DNA from: Blastocatellia bacterium
Lineage (GTDB): Bacteria; Acidobacteriota; Blastocatellia; UBA7656
Direction of reading: 5' to 3'
Assembly: GCA_963765495.1 (NCBI GenBank)
Contig: CAVXWP010000010.1
Coordinates: 1-64,000, forward strand
Length of the DNA stretch: 64,000 nt
A model generated the notes under the pieces. The model saw only the letters and a program-made list of their open reading frames with translations, did no database searches and was not told the DNA's origin. A program made the position numbers and the translations under genes. Positions 349 through 18,055 of this stretch are shown here, piece by piece (within the stretch, counting starts at the first letter, position 1; the number at the start of each line of letters is the position of its first letter).

Positions 349-1751
349 TCACACCTTCAAATACTCTATAAAGAAATTGGATTGATACCTTTGTCTCAGC
401 GACATAATCACAGAGAGTAGGACAGCCAGATTATCGGCTGTCTTTTTAGTCAGAGAACCAAAGGAAATCTTCCGTTTTATGACCAAGTGACGCAAGGCTC
501 GTTCAGCCTGGTTATTGGTCAAGGGAATCCGAGAATCTTCTAAGCAGGTCAGATATTGAGGAATATTCCTGCTGAGAGTTGTCTTAAGGCGAATCACTTT
601 TTTAGGGTCAGTAGCCTTGGTGGTTGCAAACTTGCTTAATCTTTCCACTAGGATATCATAGTTGGCTGGATTTCTGGACTGGGTAATATCCTCATAGACC
701 TGACAGAGGGTAGCATAGTTTCTTCGACAAGTTTGTTTCTGCTTTACCCCAACTCACTAGTCTGGGCTAGATCTCGAAACTTTCTCAGCAAGTGAGCCCA
801 ACAAAGTTGATGCCTTTTGAGTTTACGGTAAGCACCATAGTCGTCAGAGACTACAACTCCTTGATAATCTTCGCCCAATAATTGGTCGGCATTGCCTTTG
901 CCTCGGGATTGACCCACTACAAAAACCGACTCATCGCTTTGAGCCCCGCTCATAACCCAGGAGTAGGACTTGGTTTGATCCAGAAACAGCCGCCAGCCGG
1001 TTTCATCGAGATGAATCATTGGTTCTCCTCGAATTTGCTGCTTTAACCGCTCATAGAAGGGTCGGAGCCTAATGGCTTCTCGGTTTAAGATCTTGGCGAT
1101 CTCACCTTGAGAAATATTGAATCGGTAAGTATCAGAGAGTAATTGCTGAATCTGGCTAAAGGACAGGCGACAGAAAATATTGAGATAGCAGACATATTTC
1201 TGGACATGGGGACCAAGGATAACCTTCGTGGTCGGGATAGGAATGGCTGTTTGCTGGTTTTGGCACATAGGACAAATCGCTTTTTCTACGATGTGCTTCC
1301 TAACAACCTTTCTGGTGGGAACAAGGATGTCTTCTTCATAGAAAGTTAGGATCTGTTTGTCGGTCAAAAGTCTGCCGCAAGTGCAGAGGTCGAGAGCGTG
1401 ATGTTTGGTCTCAGTCACTTCTTCCTCCTTGGGCAGTGGCCGGTGGTAGGACTGACTTGTTCTTGGCAGCTTAGCTGATGATGGCCCAAGATCGTCATCA
1501 TCAGCTGATTTCTGTTTCTTTTTACCAAAAACTATAGTGCGCAGTTCTGTCATTTGGAGCTTGAGGTCTTCGATAATCTTTTGCTGCTCATTAACTACCA
1601 GCTTAAGGGCTTTGACTTCCTGTCTTAGGGCTCGGTTTTCGTCCCGCAGGTGCCAGATCTTGAATCTTTGATTCTCGTGGAGCTGTTCTAAATTACGGAG
1701 ACGAATTAAACGTCTGTTGACCTCTTCTGGGGATAAGCGTAGCTTAGCCAT
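349..1751 (-). pseudogene. IS66 transposase, split by one frameshift at ~747
   Basis: Coiled-coil N-terminus, Cys-rich Zn finger, HLDETGW, VVSDDY, HQLCWAHLLR, TNNQAERALR motifs; adding one G to the G4 run (minus strand) near 747 joins ORFs 744-1751 and 349-648. Confidence 0.9.
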
Positions 1752-1804: not shown

Positions 1805-3134
1805 CAATACTGTAGACAAATTTTCGACTTCGAGGATTGGCAAAAAGGGCCACGAACCGGTTAAATGAGAGTAGATAACAACTCAATAACCGGTGAATGG
1901 CCCATGACAATTGTCAATCAAATCCTAATGCATATGCCTGGACTCGCCAAGCCACAAGCGAAGTTTCTCACCTTCTTGTTTGCCACCATACTGGCACGCC
2001 GTGGTCGCTGCAACTTTCGCAACTTGAGCCGCTATGGCCCTTTCTGTCAACGCTCCATTGCCGCCAGTTCCGCCGTGAATTTGACTGGCCGCTGTTCAAT
2101 CAACAAGTCATCCTCAAGGCCACCAAACCCAGCCACACCTTGATTGCGGGTCACATGCCTCGTTCATTCCCAAGAGCGGTAAACGCACTATGGCTTGGAT
2201 CACTTCTTCAACAGTTGCGCCGGGCGGGCCGAGCGCGGCTCACAAATCTCGACCTTAGCGGTCGTCAATGTCACAGACAACGCCGCTTACACCCTGACCG
2301 TTCACAAACCCCGCCTGGCAAAGAACTGTCGCGCGAAGACAAAGAACAAACTCGCATTGACTTTTATGTCAAACAATTGCACGAGCATCGCCACCTGCTG
2401 CCCGTCGAGATCACCTACTTGGCCTGCGACGGCTTTTATGCCAAGCAGAAATACATCGACGGGGTGCGGGCCTGCCATCTACACGTCATTACCAAACTGC
2501 GAAGCGATGCCGATCTGCGATTCCTTTATACCGGCCCGCGCCAGAAGGGGCGTGGTCGTCCTCGCCTCTATGATGGTAAGGTCAATTTTCAAGACCTCAG
2601 CCGCTTTCAGTATCTGGGCACGGTTACAGAGGCTGATCATCTTCACCTCTATTCGGCAGTGCTTTATCACGTCACGCTCAAACGGCGCTTGCGGGTTTTG
2701 GTCGTCTTGGATTGCCGCGACCAAAACAAGAGGCGTTACGCAGTGCTTGCCTCAACGGATACTTCACTCGATGGCGAGCAACTTTATCGGTTCTATCGCG
2801 CACGCTTCCAGATTGAATTTATCTTTCGCGACGCGAAACACTATACTGGCCTGCTCGATTGCCAGGCGCGCGACAAGAGGGCGTTGGGCTATCACTTCAA
2901 TGCGGCGCTATCGACGCTAAATCTGGCCCGGGCCGAAGCGGTCTTGGCCCATAGGGGCAGTGGAACGCTCGTCTTTTCGATGGCTAGCCGTAAACAATTG
3001 GCATTCAATGAATTATTCATCCGAGTAATTTCTGAGGAGTTAGCATTGGACCTAACTGCCATCAAAAATCACCCGGCTTACGATAACCTCAGGACTTACG
3101 GGGCTATTGCCGCGTGATTTTGTCTCAACCATTG
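1805..3134 (+). mobile_element. IS4/IS701-like DDE insertion sequence nested in the IS66
   Basis: Imperfect TIR: left CAATACTGTAGACAAA, right (reverse complement) CAATGGTTGAGACAAA; 7-bp duplication ACACAGG at 1798-1804 and 3135-3141. Confidence 0.85.
1904..3117 (+). pseudogene. DDE transposase (DDE_Tnp_1/DDE_5-like) with about three frameshifts in the 5' third
   Basis: ACDGFY, ITKLRSDADL, YRARFQIEFIFRDAK motifs; N-terminal pieces are spread over ORFs 1865-2143, 1897-3117 and 2195-2920. Confidence 0.85.
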
Positions 3135-3652: not shown

Positions 3653-5153
3653 TCACTCGATGTCGTATTTTTTCACCCAATAATCGAATGTCTGATAGTT
3701 CGGCAATCCAAGCAGTTTTGCCGCTTTGGTCTTATTACCTTGTGCTTGCTCGATTGCTCGCTTTAGATAATCACGGACGATCTCACCCAGAAGTTCTTTC
3801 AAGCTAAAACCATTTCCGAGGGGGCGACCGATGATCTCTGTATTTCGTTCCAAAATGCTGGGAATGAGCGCGGCATGAATGTCTTCGACTTCTATCCGTC
3901 CACCGCTGGACCAAATTGCTGCTCTCCATAAAGTGTTTTGCAGCTCTCTTACATTACCTGGAAAATCATGTTTGAGCAGAACGTTTCTTGCAGCTGGGGA
4001 AAGAATCTTAGGTGCAAACCCTGGCTCTAGGGCGCTTTCCCTATTAATCACTTCCAGAAATCTGTCAACCAACAAACCTATATCACCTTGGCGGATACGT
4101 AACGGTGGAACATAAAGAATGGCAACTGCCAGACGATAAAAAAGGTCTTCACGGAATCTGCCTACGGCTACCTCTTTGATCAAACTTCGATTCGTAGCCG
4201 CAATTATCCTGACGGCGACCTTCTTTGACTTGCTGGAACCAAGCCGAGTGACATGACCCTCTTGGACAGTACGAAGCAACTTGACTTGGGCCGCCAGCGG
4301 CAATTCACCAATCTCATCAAGGAAAAGCGTACCCTCGTGTGCTACCTCGAAATGGCCGGGGCGCGGTTTGTCAGCCCCGGTGAAAGCTCCTTTTTCGTGA
4401 CCAAAAAGCTCAGATTCTACTAACTCCGCTGGTATGGCTCCGCAATTTATAATCACAAGTGGTTTGTCTCTTCGCGGACTTGCCCTATGTATAGCCTTAG
4501 CCAGCAATTCTTTGCCTGTGCCTGACTCTCCCTCAATTAACACTGGAACTGATCGAGGAGCAACGCGACGAGCCATGATAATCGTTTTCTTCATGACAGA
4601 GCTCCGGTGAATTATGTCCGAGAATTCAGGAGCCTCCAAGGGTAATCCCGCACTCAACTGGTTTAGTTTCTCATCCTGGCGTCGCAGTAAATCAGGAATG
4701 AATTCTGCTGATATATCAAAAGGCACGGAAGTGGTGGTTACGCCATAATCCTTTGATGATTGGATTAACTCAGCGGGGAATTGTGTCTTAGCAAGAATAA
4801 TCCAGACGGCAGCCATAGAAGGCGTTCCGGGGCTCAGATGATAAGTTAATTCTACTGTGCGCCCGTTAGACTTAAAGACTTCTTGAGTTGCCTGAACAGC
4901 CGCTTCATAGATTTCTCCAAAATGTGTAGGCGTTGAGAGGTTTATATAATGAAATTCGATTCTGGCGTGCGTTTGCGCCTGAAGCCATCTTAGATAAGGT
5001 CACCCTAACCTTCGGATAGTTACTTAATAGAAAGATAAAATCAAATTCGAGTTCGCTAACTGCTCGTGCAATTGGGCCCAGACCAACCCTATCACCTTCG
5101 TTTACCGCCCGAAGGTCGGTATCGCCAACCCAGCTAATGAGTGCCTTACTCAT
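3653..5153 (-). CDS. Sigma54-dependent activator with N-terminal RtcR/CARF-like domain (frameshift at ~5000)
   Basis: GESGTGKE Walker A, GAFTGA loop, FLDEIGEL, C-terminal HTH; N-terminal ISWVGDTD and LSPGTP motifs; ORF 4905-5153 joins the frame of 3653-4816 near 5000. Confidence 0.85.
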
Positions 5154-5355: not shown

Positions 5356-6668
5356 ATGGTTCTTAACAAACAGGCACAAGCAGTAGAAGCAGAAGGTTTC
5401 TATCACGGCACACAGGGAGTGAGCCCGGATGCGGCGCAGTCAAAGATTCAAGCTCAATTCACACAGCGGCAAGAGAAGGTGCGCGACAACGCAACTCCTC
5501 TAATTAAACAGCAAGAAGCGAATCTTGCAATTCTAAAAGACGCCAAGCAGAAACCGAGAAGCATTGGCGCGACTTAGAGATTCATACTAATGGAATGCCG
5601 CCGCAGATGGCTCTACCGTTTTTAGCCTTCATCTCGGCCTTGCTTGTGGTCATTGGTGAAGGAATTTTTCTTGCTCCGGTCATGGATGGCTTTGGAATTA
5701 CGGATCCACTCCAACAGTCAATTCTTGCGACGGTGCTAGTCCTGACCTCAAGCGGTCTTCTTAAATTGGCCATCCATCAGTTATATCCGCCGCCACCTTT
5801 GAATATTGGTGGTAGTGATACAGAAATCAGTGTAAATAGAACTTCCTCAAAGTCCAAAGCGGTCCTCGGGGTGGTTATTACAGCCCTCCTTTCATTGTTG
5901 GCTCTATCACTTGTTTTTATTCTGGGTTTGTGGCGAGCCGAAGAGATGATCTTTGCCGCGTCACTTCAGCCGGGAGAACTGGCCAGCTTTCTCAGTCACA
6001 ACCGGACACTAACTAAAATCTGTGTAGTGTTATTGACCATCGGGCTTCCAGTCTTCGCGGCCATCGCGTTTGAGTACGCATTTAATCACCTGTACCTTGC
6101 CTGGGAATGGCGTAAGGCGCGGCAGGCTTTCTTGAGTTCGTCGCGCCGTCTTGACCAAACCCGCAAGAGGATTGAGGCGATCAAGGAAAGAGTTAATCAC
6201 CAAGTTGTTGATCTCAATGAGCGAAGAAAGGAGCGGATCAATGCCTATCTGCAGAGTTACGAGGTTGGCCGCAAAGTCGGCGCTCAACAAGAGCCGTTTG
6301 GGCCGATTTTGCTCAAAATCGTAGCGGTGGGGGTGTGCGTCTTGTTGGCCTGCCTTTTATTTGATCCGGTGCTGGCCAACTATATAACCTCAGGTGTGTA
6401 CCGTGGCTTGGTTTACTCCTGCACTACGCTGGGACTTGCTGGCCTGTATGCATATCACGCGCTCAATGCCTGGCGTCGCCCTAACCCAATACAGTTGTAC
6501 AGGCATCGGGCGACCCTTTGGCGGAAGGAATCAATATCCAGCACATCTGAACAAGCCCCGGTGCACAGCACAATACAACCAAAACAACAGCAGGTTGATT
6601 CCATCGCGGTGATTCCGCGAGGCGAAGGTAGAACCCCACCCTATTTCGCGAGAGGAGGGGAACGATGA
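5356..6668 (+). CDS. Polytopic membrane protein with coiled-coil segments (frameshift at ~5552)
   Basis: RBS before ATG 5356; one extra A in the AAA run joins 5356-5577 to 5595-6668; about six hydrophobic segments. Confidence 0.7.
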
Positions 6669-7456
6669 GGAAGATGACTTTAATGAAGAATGTAATCTGC
6701 GCATTACTCCTATCACAAGTCTTGTATTTTGGTTGCCGTCGTCATCAGGTTGAACCTCTACAGTTGATTTGCATTGTTGACCTGACAGCGAGCGTTGACC
6801 CGAAAGCGCAAGCGGAGTCCTTCGCGGCTCTCGAAGCTATATTCCTCCAGCTAAGGCGAGGCGATACCGTTACTTTGATCCCTATCACCGGCGATAGTCT
6901 GACTGAAACTCAAGGGCACATTCTCAGATTTCACCTAAATGAGAAGCGAGAGGCTTATGATGCCGATCTGCGGCGGCTAGCTGAGGAAGCGCAAAAAAAC
7001 TTGCAGGTGATAAAGGAACAGGCTGCAGCCAAGCCATATATGAAGAGCGATATCCTCGGTGCAGTCGCACTCGCGGGGGAAGAACTGTCCCTGACACAAG
7101 CGGAAGTGAGCAAGCTCATAGTTGTCCTAAGCGATTTCATCCAGGATGATGCTCAACACAACTTCAATCGCGATGTGAGACTTGCAAAGGAGCAATCGGC
7201 CAAAGACTTAGCCCAGATTTTGGCACAACCTCATGCGCTTCAAGAAGCGACCGTCTATATGGGACTGCTTCGAAGTTCCGATCTCAAGTCAATGCCACAG
7301 GGAAGACGCTCAGCGATCCGAACTTTTTGGACCGAGTACTTCGGTCTTGAAGGCGCTGGATCTGTTCACTATACAAGCGATGGCCCGGGCCAACTCGCTC
7401 AGTTTCTGAAAAGGTCGCAAGAGGTTAAGACGCAACAATCGGATTTGACTGAGTAG
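6665..7456 (+). CDS. VWA-fold lipoprotein
   Basis: Lipobox-like YFGC; MIDAS-like IVDLTAS, SDILGA, VVLSDF; ATGA overlap with upstream gene. Confidence 0.7.
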   Translation: MRKMTLMKNVICALLLSQVLYFGCRRHQVEPLQLICIVDLTASVDPKAQAESFAALEAIFLQLRRGDTVTLIPITGDSLTETQGHILRFHLNEKREAYDADLRRLAEEAQKNLQVIKEQAAAKPYMKSDILGAVALAGEELSLTQAEVSKLIVVLSDFIQDDAQHNFNRDVRLAKEQSAKDLAQILAQPHALQEATVYMGLLRSSDLKSMPQGRRSAIRTFWTEYFGLEGAGSVHYTSDGPGQLAQFLKRSQEVKTQQSDLTE

Positions 7457-7477
7457 GCGTCCTTGGAGAGGTGAATA

Positions 7478-8217
7478 ATGGGGAAAGAACTGACACGCAG
7501 TTTTAAGTTTCACGCGCTAGTTATTCTTGCGGTTGCTGCTTTGGGGTGTTCGAAGCGCATCGCCTTTGATCGTACACCAACAGTTGGTACCGCAACCTGT
7601 CGAGTGAATCTTCGGTCAGGCCCGGGCACCTCCTTTCCCCGGATTAATACGATTGAGGAGGGTACCCAAGTAAGGATCACGTCGCGTGATGGCGACTGGT
7701 ATCAGGTTGAGTGCAATGACCAATCGGGATATATCTCTTCGACTTATCTCAGCCTTGGAAACGGCGCACAACCAGAAGCTCCTGCGGAAGACTATCAGAG
7801 GGTGCTTGCTAATCCTAAAAACTTCAATCCAAGACACGCGCAAATCCTGAAATCCACAGGCTGGTATGAGTACGTGAATGGCAATATCGACGTGCTCAAG
7901 TACTACCATTGGAGTGCGTTTCAAAGCGATAAAGGTCCTGCGGTCGGATTGTCATACATCTCCAATGGAGAACGAGTCGTATTCGTAGCCACAAAGGATC
8001 GAAGCGAAGAAGATGTAGTTGCCACTTTAGTTCATGAAGCTGCCATTGCGAGTTCGGGGTAAGGTACGGGCAGGGTGGTGGCCGCCAATGGCGCGATCAA
8101 AGTGAGGCCTATGCCCAAAAAACCGAAAGGCGGTTCCTTGACGACTATTACCGATGGATCCGAGGCAAATGGCCTCAACCACGTTGCACGTGCAGATGCT
8201 CAAGTGGGAGACAGTAA
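7478..8217 (+). CDS. Lipoprotein with bacterial SH3 domain and C-terminal HExxH zincin-like domain (frameshift at ~8044)
   Basis: Lipobox ALGC; SH3b signature VNLRSGPGT...WYQV...GYIS; adding one C restores LVHEAAHCE...SEAYA and extends to TAA 8217. Confidence 0.7.
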
Positions 8218-8221
8218 CGAC

Positions 8222-8647
8222 ATGAAGAAGGCAGCACTTATTCTGGGAATGGTTTCTGGCGTGTCCTTATCCTTGGGTATCTACCCTGGAAGTCTGATGG
8301 TTCTTGGAATTATCCTCCTTGTCTTCGTAGCCTGGGGACGCGGTCTTGCTGGCAAAAAAGCCTTCGATCGGGAATTCCTGATTTCGTTTCTTATCGTATT
8401 ATTCCTACCCCTCTTTGTTTGTACACTGATTAATGCCATCGGTTGGCCAACGCTGCTGGTTCTCATGCTGGCAACAGCCCTCTTCGTTTACGTCGATCTG
8501 AAAAAGAGATGGCGGCATACACGGCCTAACAAACCAAGCGCGTCGAACACCAGAGGAATCGAGCGCACTCCTCTATATCCGCTTCACCATATTGGTGATC
8601 GTGATGGGTACTTAGATGAAAGCTTTGAAGTTGATCCAGATACTTAA
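8222..8647 (+). CDS. Small integral membrane protein
   Basis: GGGAG RBS then ATG 8222 (MKKAALILG); about four hydrophobic segments. Confidence 0.65.
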   Translation: MKKAALILGMVSGVSLSLGIYPGSLMVLGIILLVFVAWGRGLAGKKAFDREFLISFLIVLFLPLFVCTLINAIGWPTLLVLMLATALFVYVDLKKRWRHTRPNKPSASNTRGIERTPLYPLHHIGDRDGYLDESFEVDPDT

Positions 8648-10239
8648 TAGAACGAAGATTCAGCGGGCCACAAGCAAGTTCTTATCTGAAACCGCCTCTT
8701 ATCAGCACTCTCGCTATAGGCAGCGGGTGGGTGAACAGATGAGGAAGATTGAACGGAGTGCCGGGCCGTTAGTTTCTCTGGGCAAAACGGAGTGGGGAAG
8801 AAGTGTCTTTGTGCCCTTCGATCACCTCTACGCCCACAGCCTTATCGTGGGCGCGAGCGGCGCAGGGAAGAGTTATACCGCCCTTCAGATCATCCTGAGA
8901 TTGCTTCGCGAGGGTGAAGCTGGCTTTGGGTTGGTGGATGCGAAGGGCGAGCTATACGGACTCGCAGTACGTTACCTTTATGCTTTCCTCTATCGGCTTT
9001 CGCCGACAAAGCGAGAGAAATTCAAACGAAGGATTACACTAATTGACTTTTCCGACTCTCAGAGGATTTCACCCTACAACATACTTTTGCCTCATTCGGG
9101 GCAAGACATTGAAGTCCTGATAAACAACCGTCTGGACACAATCAGTGACCTGTTCTCCGACGAGACTTCCGGCATAACGACTCGAATGAGAACTGTGCTC
9201 AAATACATTTTCGTGCTCGCTGCACATGCCGAATACCTCTTACTTCGATTGACAGGCTTATAGACGATCGTAAACTCCTTGAACACTATATTAGCCGGTG
9301 CCCCGATGAACGGGTCAGAGATTACTTTCATTCGCGGTTCGACAAAGAACCTGAGATAACTGTCCAGGCAGTCAGGCAACGACTCGACGCGATTCTGGCG
9401 AGTGAAAGCGTTCGCTTGGCACTTTCGGCAGATACTGCGCCTGATTTCAGAAGACTTCAAGATGAAGGGGCCATTGTCTTGGTCAACACAGCAGGACGCA
9501 ACATCAACCGTTCGGTCTCGCTACTCTTACAGATCTTAATCTTGCAAGATATCAAGCAGTCGATCTTCAGCCGGAAAGAAAAAGGGCTCCTCACCTCTGG
9601 TTTCTTGATGAGGCTCAGAACTTCTACCGGTCTCGCTCAGCGCAGAGCAGTATGAATGAGATTCTGACTATGGCCAGATCCTTCGGCTCCTTTGCTTGCT
9701 TGATAACGCAAGCTGCCACTTCTGCCATTCAGGACAGCGACGCTTTAAACACCTTGCTTGCGAATATCCGTTGGCTTCTTATGTTCCGCTCAACAAGTAG
9801 AGATGCCCGAATGATCGAACCGGCGATCCCCTTAACCGGCAATTGTCAGAAACTGCAACGGCATCCCTATGAGCAGGCCGAGTACATGGGCTTGGAGGAG
9901 GAGAAACGTCATCGATTAAACGCCGTCAGCTACCTTCCCGACCGCAAAGCCTATCTCTGGCTGAAAAGTGAAATGTCAAAGGCGATTATGATAGAGACTG
10001 CTTCTGTGCCATCACCGTATGCGGTTGCCGGTTGTAGCCAACTTGAGCTTGAACGATTCATAGAAAGCGAAGAATTGGGTTCTCGAATAAGGAGGGAAGA
10101 CCTTCTTGCTCAAACAAAGAAACGCCAAGCCGAGATGAGAGGGATAGAGGCGGTAGAGCCATCCATAGCATCTGACGATCTGCTTCATTCGCTTGAGGAG
10201 GAGTATAAGAAAAAGTCATCGCGGAGGAAGAGTAAGTGA
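8616..10239 (+). CDS. VirD4/TrwB-like (HerA-FtsK superfamily) coupling ATPase; two frameshifts (~9227, ~9582)
   Basis: HSLIVGASGAGKS Walker A, VDAKGE, restored Walker B LWFLDEAQNF, ARSFG..LITQ. Confidence 0.85.
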
Positions 10240-10535
10240 GCGCTCCCTCGAATTGGAAATTCATGTCCAGGATTGTGGCCTATATCATCGTAAGTCCGTT
10301 CTTAGGAATATGGATATTATGTAAAGGGATTCGTCACCTCGTGAAGATCAAAGTGGCTGGCAAGATTGCGGTGATGTGTCCAAACTGCAAGATGCTTGTG
10401 TCGCTCGTGGGGATTTGGAAATGCACCTGCGGCTTTACTTATCGGGGACATCTTATCACCAAGTGTCCGATCTGTTTCACCGTTCCCCGAATGGTACGTT
10501 GTCCTCGTTGCCAGGTGACAAGGAAACTTTTATGA
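10236..10535 (+). CDS. Membrane-anchored Zn-ribbon protein
   Basis: N-terminal hydrophobic helix; CPNC, CTCG, CPIC, CPRC; overlaps both neighbours by 4 nt. Confidence 0.7.
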   Translation: MSAPSNWKFMSRIVAYIIVSPFLGIWILCKGIRHLVKIKVAGKIAVMCPNCKMLVSLVGIWKCTCGFTYRGHLITKCPICFTVPRMVRCPRCQVTRKLL

Positions 10536-11428
10536 CAGTCAAGATCACAGATAGAGATATCCAGATTCTTGAGTTGATTGCCGCCGTCGGGTGGCTTTCA
10601 ACCCGCCAGATTCACTATGCCCTGTTTCCTGATGCCATTGCGAAGGTGGTCAACAAACGAACGCGAAAGCTCACTCAGGCACGCTATCTGGACAAGGTGA
10701 GACTCAGCCGAACAGATCAAAATCTCTATAGGTTGGGGAAGGAAGGCAAGAAACTGCTGGCCGTTGAGACTAACTTTCCAGAGGAGGGGATCGTACAAAT
10801 GAGAAAACCGCCAAGAGAGCTAGACCATTTCCTGGCAATCAATGATTTGAGATTGATCTTTGAAAAAGAAATCAAGAAGCGGGGCGGTGAGATGAAGTTC
10901 TTCCTTGCCGATCTTGAGCTAAGAAAGAGAGGTGAACAATCTCCCATCATTCCTGATGCTATTATGCGTTTCCTGTTAGATGGGAGGGATTACCGCTTCG
11001 TTATCGAGTATGACAACGGCACCGAAACCTCACGCTATTTTGCAAGGGAGAAGGTGCGGAAGTATATCCAGATCGTTTCTACTAACCGCTCAATTTTTAG
11101 TCTTATGCATTTTCGGATTCTCGTCTTCACTGCGAATCTAAGAATAGCTTTGAAACTGATTAAGGGGTCAGTCAGAGAAAACCCTCCACCGGGCCTTTTC
11201 TACTTCGCTGCCAAAAGTGAGATAGCTCCCGAAGATATCTTGGCCGACAATTACTTGGATCCGGCAGGGCTTCTTCAAGAGGGGCGTGGTAGCAAGGTTG
11301 AGGGCATAACCAGCCGCCGATCGGAGGTTAAGTGGCACTCCCTTACTGAGATGGTGTCTCGTAGTGGTGTCTCGATGCACCAGGAAGAGCAGGATAAGTC
11401 CTTTGCTATACGTGAATGCCAACTCTAG
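10532..11428 (+). CDS. Replication-relaxation (Replic_Relax, MOBC-like) protein
   Basis: N-terminal ITDRDIQIL...LSTRQI wHTH, DHFLAINDL, IPDA, IEYDNGTE (PD-(D/E)xK-type); AAGGA RBS before ATG 10532. Confidence 0.85.
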   Translation: MTVKITDRDIQILELIAAVGWLSTRQIHYALFPDAIAKVVNKRTRKLTQARYLDKVRLSRTDQNLYRLGKEGKKLLAVETNFPEEGIVQMRKPPRELDHFLAINDLRLIFEKEIKKRGGEMKFFLADLELRKRGEQSPIIPDAIMRFLLDGRDYRFVIEYDNGTETSRYFAREKVRKYIQIVSTNRSIFSLMHFRILVFTANLRIALKLIKGSVRENPPPGLFYFAAKSEIAPEDILADNYLDPAGLLQEGRGSKVEGITSRRSEVKWHSLTEMVSRSGVSMHQEEQDKSFAIRECQL

Positions 11429-11582
11429 CCAAAACAAATATGCCTATGAATTCTTATGATAATTGACAGATCAAACCAGGTAACAAGGTGCTTGCCCCTT
11501 TCGTCAGCTTCCGCACCCTTGTTGACTTGCTTATATTTTCTAATCTGAAGCTGGTTCTCTGAAAACTAGGTTTCTCGGTTCA

Positions 11583-11852
11583 ATGGGATTGAAACAGTTG
11601 GAGCAAACCAAGGCAATGACCGATGATGTGCTAACAAAATCTGAACTGGCTGAATTCCTCAATGTCAGCGAGCGCAGCATCGAAAGGTGGATTGTGGAGA
11701 GGACCATTCCTTTCATTTTGCTCCCCCAAAGAGGCTCACGCTGCAATATACGCTTTCTTAAATCCACAATCATTATGTGGCTTAAGAAGAATGAAAGGAG
11801 AGCATCAAACAGACTTCTCATGGAGGTAGATAATGAAGAAGAAAAAGAGTGA
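11583..11852 (+). CDS. Excisionase-like HTH protein
   Basis: LTKSELAEFLNVSERSIERW...IPF...IRF; immediately upstream of integrase. Confidence 0.85.
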   Translation: MGLKQLEQTKAMTDDVLTKSELAEFLNVSERSIERWIVERTIPFILLPQRGSRCNIRFLKSTIIMWLKKNERRASNRLLMEVDNEEEKE

Positions 11853-12929
11853 ACTTCCACAAGGCGTTTTCTGGAGGGGAAACATACTTTGGATACGCTA
11901 CCAGAACGAGCAAGGTAAAATCGTCAAGGAAAGCACAGGACAAACCTCTGTCAAAGTAGCTGTGCAGATTTACAACAAGCGAAAGACAGAGGTTGCAATG
12001 GCAATCAACTTCCCTTCTAGAAGAATTCAAGAAAGTTTCCTTTTAAAGAGTTGTTCGACTACTGGTGGAACAATCACGGAAAGTACAAGCCGAGTAAATT
12101 TGAATACCTGATCCCTCGCCTTCATAGATTCTTTAAGCTCAAAGCAAGGCAAATCTCTTCTGACATGGTTCGCGCGTTCTTGAACAGCCTGAGAGACGAA
12201 GAGGGATTGTCAGCCTCTAGCGTCAATCACTATAGGACAATTATTAACTCTGTTTTTAACTACGCAATCAGGAACAAGAAGTATGATGAAAATCCGGTAA
12301 AGGCTGTGCCTATGATGCCGCAGCCGCCTGGACGAGACAGATTCACAACGCCGGAAGAGATCCAGAAGCTTCTGGATATGTGCGAGAGGGAGAATGATCT
12401 AGAGATGAAAGCCTTTGTCATCATTGCGGCCACCACTGGTTTGCGCAAAGGCTCAATCCTGCCCCGCAAGTACTCTGATGTGTTTCTCGATACGGAGATT
12501 CCCTACCTTTACGTGGGCAAAACCAAGAATGGCGACCCAATCAAAATCCCTCTGGCAGAGATGGCAACGCAATCCATTAGGACGTTGCCTAGCTATGGAA
12601 GAAGTGAGTACCTATTCCCGGCAAGGCCCAACGTACGCTACAAGGGCAATTTCAAAAAGCTGCACACCTGGGATATAGGAAAGCGGTTTAGAAGGCTTTG
12701 CAAGCTGGCCGGTATAGAAAACCTGAGGGTTAATAACCTGAGACACTTCGCTACTACTATGCTGTTTATGGAGGGAATCTCAGATTCGATGATAGCCAAA
12801 ATGACTGGACATAGGAGCAGAGAGTTGAAGCGTTACCAACACCTGAGTCCAGAGTTCAAGAGGCAGACAGTTGAAATAATAGCTCAGAAACTCACCAAGG
12901 CTATTCCTTCCAGCGATCTCATACATTGA
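11833..12929 (+). CDS. Tyrosine recombinase/integrase (frameshift in 12021-12050)
   Basis: Arm-binding N-terminus, SASSVNHY, NPVK, TGLRKG, KTKNG, NNLRH, TGH, RYQH. Confidence 0.9.
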
Positions 12930-13165: not shown

Positions 13166-13204
13166 CAATGATTTAGGGCTAGTTGAACTAGCCCTAAATC
13201 ATTG
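13166..13204. terminator. Perfect 39-nt palindrome downstream of tRNA-Asp
   Basis: CAATGATTTAGGGCTAGTT-G-AACTAGCCCTAAATCATTG. Confidence 0.6.
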
Positions 13205-13211
13205 ATTATAA

Positions 13212-13290
<79 letters not shown>

Positions 13291-14165: not shown

Positions 14166-16265
<2,100 letters not shown>

Positions 16266-17098: not shown

Positions 17099-18055
17099 AT
17101 GCGCAAGATTTTTTCAATTCTGCTTATGACCACAATCGCGCTTGCCGCCCAGGCGACGCAAGCCGATACCATACACCTGAAAAACGGCAGCGTGCTCAAA
17201 GGAAAAGTCGCAAGCTTTGCCGATGACCTGTTCGTCATCATGCTCGATACCGGATCGGGCCAGTATATGAGCAAGGCTATGATCTACATGGGCGATGTGG
17301 CTCGCATAGAGTTCGACTCGGCTCCTTCGATCACATCAGGCACAGAAGGCCCGTCAAGCCCGTCAAGCTCGTCAGGCTCGTCGGAGTTCTCCGATTCACC
17401 GCCCGCGCGAATCGATGCGGCACCTGCTCGCCAGGATAATTCATCATCGATACTGCCAAGCGTCAGCAAGCCTCGCGAAGAGATTTCGCGCGATTCCTCT
17501 CCGGGAGTCACCGTCCTGCGCGATGAGGTTCCGCGCGATACGCAGCCAGCCGAGGCTGTCCGCGATGCAACCGAAGCGCCTGCCGAAGCTCCAAAAACCG
17601 ACACCGATACGCCTCAGCCTCAGCCTGTGACCGAAAGCCCTGCGCCTGCCCGGCCTTCTCGAAAGCTCACAGGCCCGGTCAGGACAGCAAGTATTGATGT
17701 CGTTGCGGCGCGCGACTGGACGAGCACCGGGCTTATCGTCAAACGAGGCGATGTTTTGCGAATAACGGCCACCGGCTCGGTCGTGCTTGATCCCGTGAGC
17801 GGTAAATCGAGCGGCCCGGAAGGAACCGAAGCTGCCGACGCCAAGAAGCTTTTGCAGGATCGCCCTACGGGAGCGTTGATTGGAGTGATCGGAGCCGACA
17901 ACGATGATTTTATCTATATAGGCAATTCGGCCGAATTTACAGCTACTCGCGACGGCCTGCTCTTTTTGTCGGTAAACGAAGGAACGCTGTCGGATAACGA
18001 AGGCTCCTATAAAGCCACTATCGAATTGCAGGCGCAACGCGCTTCGATCAAATAA
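17099..18055 (+). CDS. Secreted protein: DTIxLKNG N-domain, Pro/Ser linker, LecA/PA-IL-like C-domain
   Basis: Signal peptide; WTSTGL...ITATG, GALIGVIG, LFLSVNE..DNEG. Confidence 0.65.
   Translation: MRKIFSILLMTTIALAAQATQADTIHLKNGSVLKGKVASFADDLFVIMLDTGSGQYMSKAMIYMGDVARIEFDSAPSITSGTEGPSSPSSSSGSSEFSDSPPARIDAAPARQDNSSSILPSVSKPREEISRDSSPGVTVLRDEVPRDTQPAEAVRDATEAPAEAPKTDTDTPQPQPVTESPAPARPSRKLTGPVRTASIDVVAARDWTSTGLIVKRGDVLRITATGSVVLDPVSGKSSGPEGTEAADAKKLLQDRPTGALIGVIGADNDDFIYIGNSAEFTATRDGLLFLSVNEGTLSDNEGSYKATIELQAQRASIK

Follow-up and report, generated by a model that had tools for sequence, protein, structure and literature searches.

Gene content of the region

The DNA analysed here, referred to as the window, covers the initial 64 kb of contig C10, from contig base 1, in a Blastocatellia genome (7.3 Mb in 17 contigs, 97.9% complete). 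Our subject is positions 5356-12929, a candidate mobile element in which every long open reading frame (ORF) lies on the plus strand and nine tightly packed genes, lettered A to G and followed by xis and int, end at a tRNA-Asp gene. An earlier note on this DNA had listed a polytopic membrane protein (A), a von Willebrand factor A (VWA) lipoprotein (B), an SH3-HExxH lipoprotein (C), a small membrane protein (D), a VirD4-like ATPase (E), a zinc-ribbon membrane protein (F) and a Replic_Relax protein (G) ahead of xis-int. All of these domain calls were confirmed, and the packing that it described matches the ORF calls, with 4-nt start/stop overlaps at 6665-6668 (ATGA), 10236-10239 (GTGA) and 10532-10535 (ATGA) and a longer overlap at 8616-8647. 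Homologues of the window's proteins came from Acidobacteriota metagenome-assembled genomes (MAGs), predominantly of the Pyrinomonadaceae.

Gene E (8616-10239, plus strand) encodes a TrwB/VirD4-like P-loop ATPase without a transmembrane (TM) segment. Frameshifts at ~9209-9230 and ~9580-9583 distribute the gene over three frames, and the intact orthologue P0033 (541 aa) aligns to the three pieces with 78-89% identity. The AlphaFold2 (AF2) model, with a pLDDT of 94.8, contains a long C-terminal helix (residues 494-540), and the best structural match in Foldseek was TrwB of plasmid R388 (PDB 1e9s, 1e9r; 3.2e-12; TM-score 0.46 by query and 0.56 by target), with the DndH C-domain, HerA, Cag-beta and DotL close behind. 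In comparison with TrwB, E is 15-16% identical, has no N-terminal transmembrane domain (TMD) and carries the long C-terminal helix. The Walker A and B motifs (GxxGxGKS and DE(A)Q) are conserved in the E family, of whose 52 members 16 match TrwB_AAD_bind and nine match TraG-D_C; E itself falls far under the cut-offs of the NCBIfam TraD and VirB4 models.

Two small membrane proteins are encoded on either side of the ATPase. Gene D (8222-8647, plus strand) has about four TM helices by hydropathy; its ATG is at 8222 (the listed ORF begins at a GTG at 8075), and it overlaps E by the 32 nt at 8616-8647. Gene F (10236-10535, plus strand) is intact and encodes one TM helix with a double zinc ribbon containing eight conserved cysteines. 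A complex prediction for E and F (A3 with A9) scored 0.00, weighing neither way on binding.

The intact gene G (10532-11428, plus strand) encodes a Replic_Relax (MOBC-type) protein with a PD-(D/E)xK motif. It matches PF13814 with 68.8 bits against a cut-off of 25.3 (E 8.5e-19), is the sole such gene in the genome, and also matches phrog_9381, "replication initiation by nicking" (1.6e-17), and phrog_2190. In an alignment of 30 sequences P142, D143, E160 and D162 are invariant and K175 is present in at least 90%; a PD-(D/E)xK motif forms the restriction-endonuclease-type active site of MOBC relaxases (PMC12857230), and CONJscan counts PF13814 proteins as MobC relaxases (PMC5357655). When an N-terminal winged helix-turn-helix (HTH), as in MOBC relaxases, was sought in G, its profile matched only MarR/ZitR-type regulators, weakly (E 0.15-0.2), and a PDB profile search with G returned nothing significant. 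Neither the spacer between G and xis nor the sequence preceding A contains an oriT-type array of direct repeats, and a metagenome scan with G alone gave 444 pattern matches and no confirmed one.

The recombination genes follow. An excisionase-type HTH protein is encoded by xis (11583-11852, plus strand; HTH_17 5.3e-9; phrog_66), which reaches 26.4 bits with the TIGR01764 excise model, under its cut-off of 28.8. The tyrosine integrase gene int (11833-12929, plus strand; Phage_integrase 1e-23) is frameshifted at ~12027-12030, and its orthologues in relatives L074 and L078, 73-81% identical, align to it in two frames.

ARAGORN placed the integration target, tRNA-Asp (GTC), at 13212-13288 on the minus strand, with a tRNA-Val beyond it. 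By blastn, an attR core at 13202-13258 joins 47 nt from the tRNA-Asp 3' end to a further 10 nt, and an attL copy identical over 57/57 nt lies in direct orientation at G000:C17:187994-188050, 2.7 kb short of the C17 contig end, where no tRNA is predicted for the copy. The second copy falls on a separate contig because the window begins at a contig end. The island therefore spans C17, an unassembled gap and C10:1-13258, so that its left part is only partly within the window. The C17 and C10 contig ends share no repeat with the remaining assembly, and the C17 flank gave no DNA match to an empty site in two genomes of the same family. On its island side the att core is immediately flanked by a perfect 19-bp hairpin (13166-13204), probably a tRNA (operon) terminator supplied by the element.

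The upstream genes A to C are less familiar. Gene A (5356-6668, plus strand) encodes an N-terminal soluble/coiled-coil part and a polytopic membrane protein, with coiled-coil stretches and five or more hydrophobic segments. A frameshift at ~5535-5595 splits it into ORFs 5356-5577 and 5595-6668, the two halves align in different frames by tblastn, and in relatives the gene is intact as a single ORF of 424-461 aa. It has no match in Pfam, PADLOC, NCBIfam or PHROG, and only unnamed clusters match it in the ESM Atlas; none of A, B, C and D matched a PADLOC 2.0 family.

Gene B (6665-7456, plus strand) is intact and encodes a lipoprotein with a VWA fold and residues resembling a metal ion-dependent adhesion site (MIDAS). 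Alignment shows D39, S43 and D157 to be invariant and C24 to be present in at least 90% of members, the AF2 model has a pLDDT of 90.7, and all Foldseek matches listed were VWA or I-domain proteins or complexes, with BatB first (2.7e-6). Pfam returned nothing, and neither did a PDB profile search by sequence return anything significant; the family numbers 32 proteins in 5.8 billion, one of which carries PF13519. B shares the fold and the DxTxS...D metal-site pattern with BatB-type and integrin I-type VWA domains (3ibs, 4jdu, 1n3y), but is only 12-15% identical to them, lies below Pfam VWA detection, and is a lipoprotein paired, sometimes fused, with a coiled-coil polytopic membrane protein. A second, fragmentary B copy is found at G000:C9:49390-49644 on the minus strand (L014 9391-9648; 47% identity over residues 174-256), with no adjoining A-like gene by tblastn.

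Gene C (7478-8217, plus strand) encodes a lipoprotein with an SH3 domain (SH3_3 at 1e-14 in Pfam) and a C-terminal HExxH domain. The HExxH motif proposed for it is intact in the homologue, and in the window the motif itself is interrupted by a frameshift (~8045-8050), so the called ORF ends early at 8062. P0185 (242 aa, 75% identical), its one homologue in 5.8 billion proteins, reads LVHEAAHCEF, with an intact HEAAH, and agrees downstream with the window's +1 frame. The ESM Atlas gave SH3 clusters only, with scores below 0.9. C is a lineage-specific SH3/HExxH lipoprotein.

In comparison with intact orthologues, five frameshifts were counted, one each in A, C and int and two in E, mostly at sites outside long homopolymers; the chromosomal genes that flank the island are intact. 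From these frameshifts, together with a broken CBASS, a broken IS66 element and a broken regulator elsewhere on the island, we read the element as a decayed relic, and in this genome it is probably immobile.

Relatives of the module and the slot upstream

The E family is large, with 2340 representative clusters at E <=1e-3 and 70 at 1e-30. A metagenome scan from E yielded 80 loci in which the ATPase is 35-62% identical, and merging loci with ATPases at least 90% identical left 48 groups. F lies directly after E in 53 of the 54 loci with at least 500 nt of downstream sequence and G comes next in 44 of the 50 with at least 1.3 kb, and both are present in all 30 groups whose downstream sequence is long enough. 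The window's nearest clade (L072, L074, L076, L078-L082) has xis, int and a tRNA after E-F-G. Among 12 relatives examined, a tRNA gene of varying identity lies within 125 nt of int in six and within 3.5 kb in two more; no convincing att repeats were found within eight related loci. D-like genes immediately precede E in 8 of 42 groups. One of these holds the closest relative, L072, an intact element with an A-B fusion, D, E, F, G, xis and int at a tRNA-Ser gene. The end of D runs into the start of E both in the window and in L074-type relatives. A distant Acidobacteriota clade of five loci (L011, L028, L060, L063, L071) has the order ATPase, Replic_Relax, double zinc ribbon, small ORF and tyrosine integrase. 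This pattern of conservation indicates that E-F-G is the invariant unit and that the content upstream of it is exchangeable.

Relatives were also sought in viral contigs and plasmids. The ATPase alignment gave 82 pattern matches and no confirmed one in 2.9 million viral contigs, and P0033 gave three weak tblastn matches (22-26% identity) in plasmids.

Several relatives carry further genes. In L074 (4700-8700) and L078 (4030-8200), whose xis and int are 59-81% identical to those of the window, a Toprim/CHC2 primase, a 450-aa protein of no assigned family, an HTH protein and a RuvC-like resolvase are encoded upstream of D-E-F-G, which suggests that some family members replicate after excision. 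Cluster c3 (L084 10165-11130 and 26 other ORFs), an unannotated family of ~320-335 aa whose sole match is phrog_29643 (3.8e-12), stands downstream of G in 9 of the 14 groups with at least 4.5 kb of downstream sequence and is possibly another conserved component of the remoter elements.

One of the two readings offered in the earlier note makes the seven genes A to G a single transfer system, and this does not survive the test of co-conservation. By tblastn, neither A nor C is found in any of the 80 E-family loci. In the 28 groups with at least 2.5 kb upstream of E, the slot holds a B-like gene in nine, an E1 (ThiF-type)/JAB set in eleven, both in none and neither in eight; nine of the eleven E1 groups also have the JAB peptidase, and E1 and JAB match CBASS Cap2/Cap3-type models.

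Genuine A-B pairs stand alone in other genomes. Matches to B are rare, at 5 of 400 other genomes in the phylum, and A lies immediately before B in all seven loci found among 185,579 species genomes. When B-family loci (L010, L011, L012, L023-L026, L028) were scanned with Pfam, a TrwB/DUF87-type ATPase with Replic_Relax was present only in L011 and L028, where the order is ATPase, Replic_Relax, zinc ribbon, ORF, integrase, two ORFs, A and B, which places the pair outside the ATPase operon. In L012 (518-11694) the pair, in reversed order (B-A), has an RT-Cas1 fusion and Cas2 on one side and a Zorya-like set (EH_Signature, OmpA-like, SNF2) on the other. Elsewhere it is found beside TIR/ThsB-like genes (L024), a CARF protein (L025) and PIN/AbiEii with Cas1 (L023), and, in a Pyrinomonadaceae MAG, directly before a 1191-aa FtsK/SpoIIIE protein and then WXG100, a type VII secretion-like arrangement (L010 9244-13111). 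In L023 the gene immediately after the stand-alone pair (10732-11361) encodes an RDD-family membrane protein with a zinc ribbon, which resembles F in general appearance.

More distant forms do recur directly upstream of E. Fusions of 525-616 aa in L072, L090, L091 and L106 (with a truncated copy in L089) match the B profile in their C-terminal part (1.6e-15 to 3.2e-12) and have an A-like N-terminal architecture of soluble head, TM helices, coiled coil and TM, and fusion in some relatives suggests that A and B act together. Clusters c11 (~350 aa) and c7 (~270 aa), also upstream of E, have the same architecture as A-B and a DxSxS motif; their homology to A and B is weak, with one c7 member at 3.8e-4 against the B profile and hhalign probabilities of 7% and 9%.

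We take A-B, a membrane protein and a periplasmic VWA lipoprotein, to be a separate two-gene cassette in a variable cargo slot upstream of the core. Its alternation with E1/JAB sets and its stand-alone copies in defence-rich neighbourhoods favour cargo that uses these elements as a vehicle, and its neighbouring genes make a defence or exclusion-type envelope module its most likely nature. As a very rare envelope cassette found both on these elements and in defence islands, it is a candidate for a new defence or exclusion function. No description of the A-B cassette or of the E-F-G trio was found in the literature searched, in which few subscription journals were covered.

Mobilization and the rival explanations

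We read the region as probably the right-hand portion of a decayed integrative mobilizable element (IME) that inserted at the tRNA-Asp 3' end, with E-F-G as its mobility core and A-B and C as passengers. An integrase, an excisionase and att repeats at the target are present, together with a relaxase-family gene that has no mating-pair formation (MPF) genes beside it in the assembled sequence, the C17-C10 gap being unassembled. The VirB4-family ATPase and MPF genes that mark a self-transmissible integrative and conjugative element were not found. The core would consist of E-F-G-xis-int, possibly with D. G, as a MOBC-type nuclease, would nick and process the excised element, and E, as a TrwB-like coupling ATPase, would pass the DNA to the type IV secretion channel of another element. 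As E has no membrane domain, F, and in the window's clade D, may tether it to the membrane, and xis and int would carry out excision and integration.

The order E-F-G-xis-int-tRNA matches the compact IME layout of coupling protein, MOBC relaxase and recombinase set out in PMC5357655. Streptococcal IME_Class_8 (Coluzzi et al. 2017, PMC5357655) has the same co-oriented coupling protein, PF13814/MobC relaxase and recombinase at the element end and no MPF genes. Its recombinase is a serine integrase, whereas here a tyrosine integrase with xis is found at a tRNA gene; the ATPase here also has no TM domain and falls under the Pfam type IV coupling protein (T4CP) threshold, a conserved membrane zinc-ribbon gene stands between ATPase and relaxase, and the hosts are Acidobacteriota and soil bacteria. 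The TMD-less ATPase, the invariant zinc-ribbon membrane protein, the tyrosine integrase at tRNA genes and the soil Acidobacteriota hosts distinguish the family among MOBC/T4CP-type IMEs. The MOBC1 plasmid CloDF13 likewise encodes its own coupling ATPase (MobB) and a MOBC relaxase of restriction-endonuclease fold (MobC) and borrows a channel (PMC7431656, PMC12857230), but its MobB has an essential TMD (PMC7431656), where E has none, and it is a plasmid, where the present element is integrated and G has no sequence match in plasmids. The suggestion of the earlier note that the element borrows a helper type IV secretion system (T4SS) gains support from the invariant E-F-G trio, the xis-int-tRNA order, the published IME layout and the absence of VirB4. 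E-F-G is the invariant core of a large, uncharacterised family of tRNA-integrating elements, found mostly in soil-bacterial genomes with no detected type IV secretion ATPase, and how these elements move would bear on gene flow in Acidobacteriota, a dominant yet genetically intractable soil phylum.

Several observations weigh against mobilization by a helper. The absence of VirB4 seen in the window extends to the whole genome, with no PF03135 or PF12846 match at 97.9% completeness. VirB4 was found in one of five other genomes carrying a related module, in 29 of 401 genomes that sample the phylum and in none of 37 from families f1-f5, listed as the window's class, so a helper would have to be a transient visitor. 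P0033 reaches no Pfam T4CP threshold (best AAA_10, 21.7 bits against a cut-off of 27.5), and neither P0033 nor the L060 ATPase has a hydrophobic segment that could form an N-terminal TMD; this domain was essential in the T4CPs tested (PMC7431656). The best PADLOC match of P0033 is mad8 (1.2e-13), the ATPase of an ATPase-nuclease defence module, and DndH-C and HerA nearly equal TrwB in fold-search score. G gave no tblastn match in 72,556 plasmids, so that family membership is the ground on which a relaxase function is assigned to it. The five frameshifts are calls from the assembled sequence. Finally, A/B-like cassettes are very rare yet recur beside E-type modules more than random cargo predicts; either these elements are the usual vehicle of B, or B assists them.

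Helper scarcity is the main weakness of the mobilization reading and the reason that a VirB4-independent route keeps a small probability. In a minimal system of this kind, D-E-F would act as a DNA pump in the inner membrane, and the A/B-like proteins, with C, would provide envelope contact or passage, making the element self-transmissible without MPF genes; we regard this as very unlikely. Its hosts are indeed mostly without VirB4, A/B-like pairs or fusions stand directly upstream of E in the nine groups given above and also occur in L011 and L028, and the D and E reading frames overlap in the window and its L074-type relatives. The same slot, however, holds E1/JAB in eleven of the 28 groups and neither set in eight, true homologues of A are absent from all 80 loci, C has a single homologue, A-B pairs exist without any ATPase or relaxase, no outer-membrane channel component was seen, and the link of c7/c11 to B/A is weak (hhalign 7-9%; HMM E 3.8e-4 for one member). 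The earlier proposal that the VWA and SH3 lipoproteins replace MPF parts is set aside on the same counts, with D-like genes in 8 of 42 groups; the dismissal is less than complete, as fused A-B genes and remote A/B-like pairs do recur immediately before E. That E-F-G (with D), often aided by an A/B-type pair, exports or transfers DNA independently of VirB4 in diderm soil bacteria is a long shot; if true, it would explain the abundance of the family in lineages with no detected VirB4.

Two further explanations give E-F-G a role other than transfer. The trio could be an ATPase-nuclease defence module resembling MAD7-MAD8, DndH-type or HerA-nuclease systems, carried as cargo beside recombination genes, which we think unlikely. 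MADS includes a MAD7-MAD8 ATPase-nuclease module (PMC13662399), and it and the DndH C-domain (7es4, Foldseek rank 4) share with E-F-G the pairing of a P-loop ATPase of the same superfamily with a nuclease. The mad8 match of P0033 strengthens to between 1e-18 and 7e-20 in the distant clade, DndH-C and the anti-phage HerA complexes rank near the top of the fold search, and a gene for a D12 methyltransferase immediately precedes the ATPase gene in L028, L060 and L063 and stands one gene farther upstream in L011. Nevertheless, TrwB is the single best fold match, G has no PADLOC match but does match Replic_Relax and a nicking-initiator PHROG, other MADS and Dnd genes are absent, and the fixed order of trio, xis, int and tRNA at the element end is the signature of a mobility module. 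A replication or packaging module of a plasmid-like or satellite element, with G as nicking initiator and E as partition or encapsidation pump, is a highly improbable alternative: it accords with the phrog_9381 (1.6e-17) and phrog_2190 matches of G, with weak Zot and terminase-like P-loop matches of P0033 and with the primase and RuvC genes upstream in L074 and L078, but no relative was found in the 2.9 million viral contigs, no capsid or coat gene was seen, and plasmids gave three weak matches for the ATPase and none for G. Both explanations are disfavoured because the trio is fixed before xis-int-tRNA and has no relative in viral contigs. An inovirus-like reading, with a morphogenesis ATPase after coat-like membrane genes, was dropped, as E folds like TrwB and no viral relative was found.

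Other island cargo and flanking genes

The remainder of the assembled island carries further genes. Near the contig start, a broken IS66-family transposase (349-1751, minus strand) is present as ORFs 349-648 and 744-1751, which match separate parts of the DDE_Tnp_IS66 Pfam profile (7e-9 and 3.7e-27, respectively), and an IS4-like DDE transposase of 406 aa follows at 1897-3117 on the plus strand (Pfam DDE_Tnp_1 3.3e-8). An RtcR/PspF-like regulator with CARF, sigma-54 AAA and HTH domains lies at 3653-5153 on the minus strand. Its body (3653-4816; Sigma54_activat 8e-69) matches PADLOC RtcR_PspF2--CARF_AAA_HTH at 7e-163, and its N-terminal CARF piece is a separate 82-aa ORF (4905-5153; 4.8e-7 with the same model), so the gene is probably broken.

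On the C17 part, just inside attL (L001 7920-9720), lies a remnant of a cyclic oligonucleotide-based antiphage signalling system (CBASS), in which a frameshift divides the gene for a patatin-like phospholipase effector (7920-8342 and 8329-8532) and an oligonucleotide cyclase persists as a 149-aa piece (PADLOC 2e-34). The CARF-AAA-HTH regulator may once have controlled this adjoining CBASS. Outside the island, the window encodes an intact thermolysin-type M4 peptidase with its propeptide (14166-16265) and a protein with a PA-IL-like lectin domain (17099-18055).

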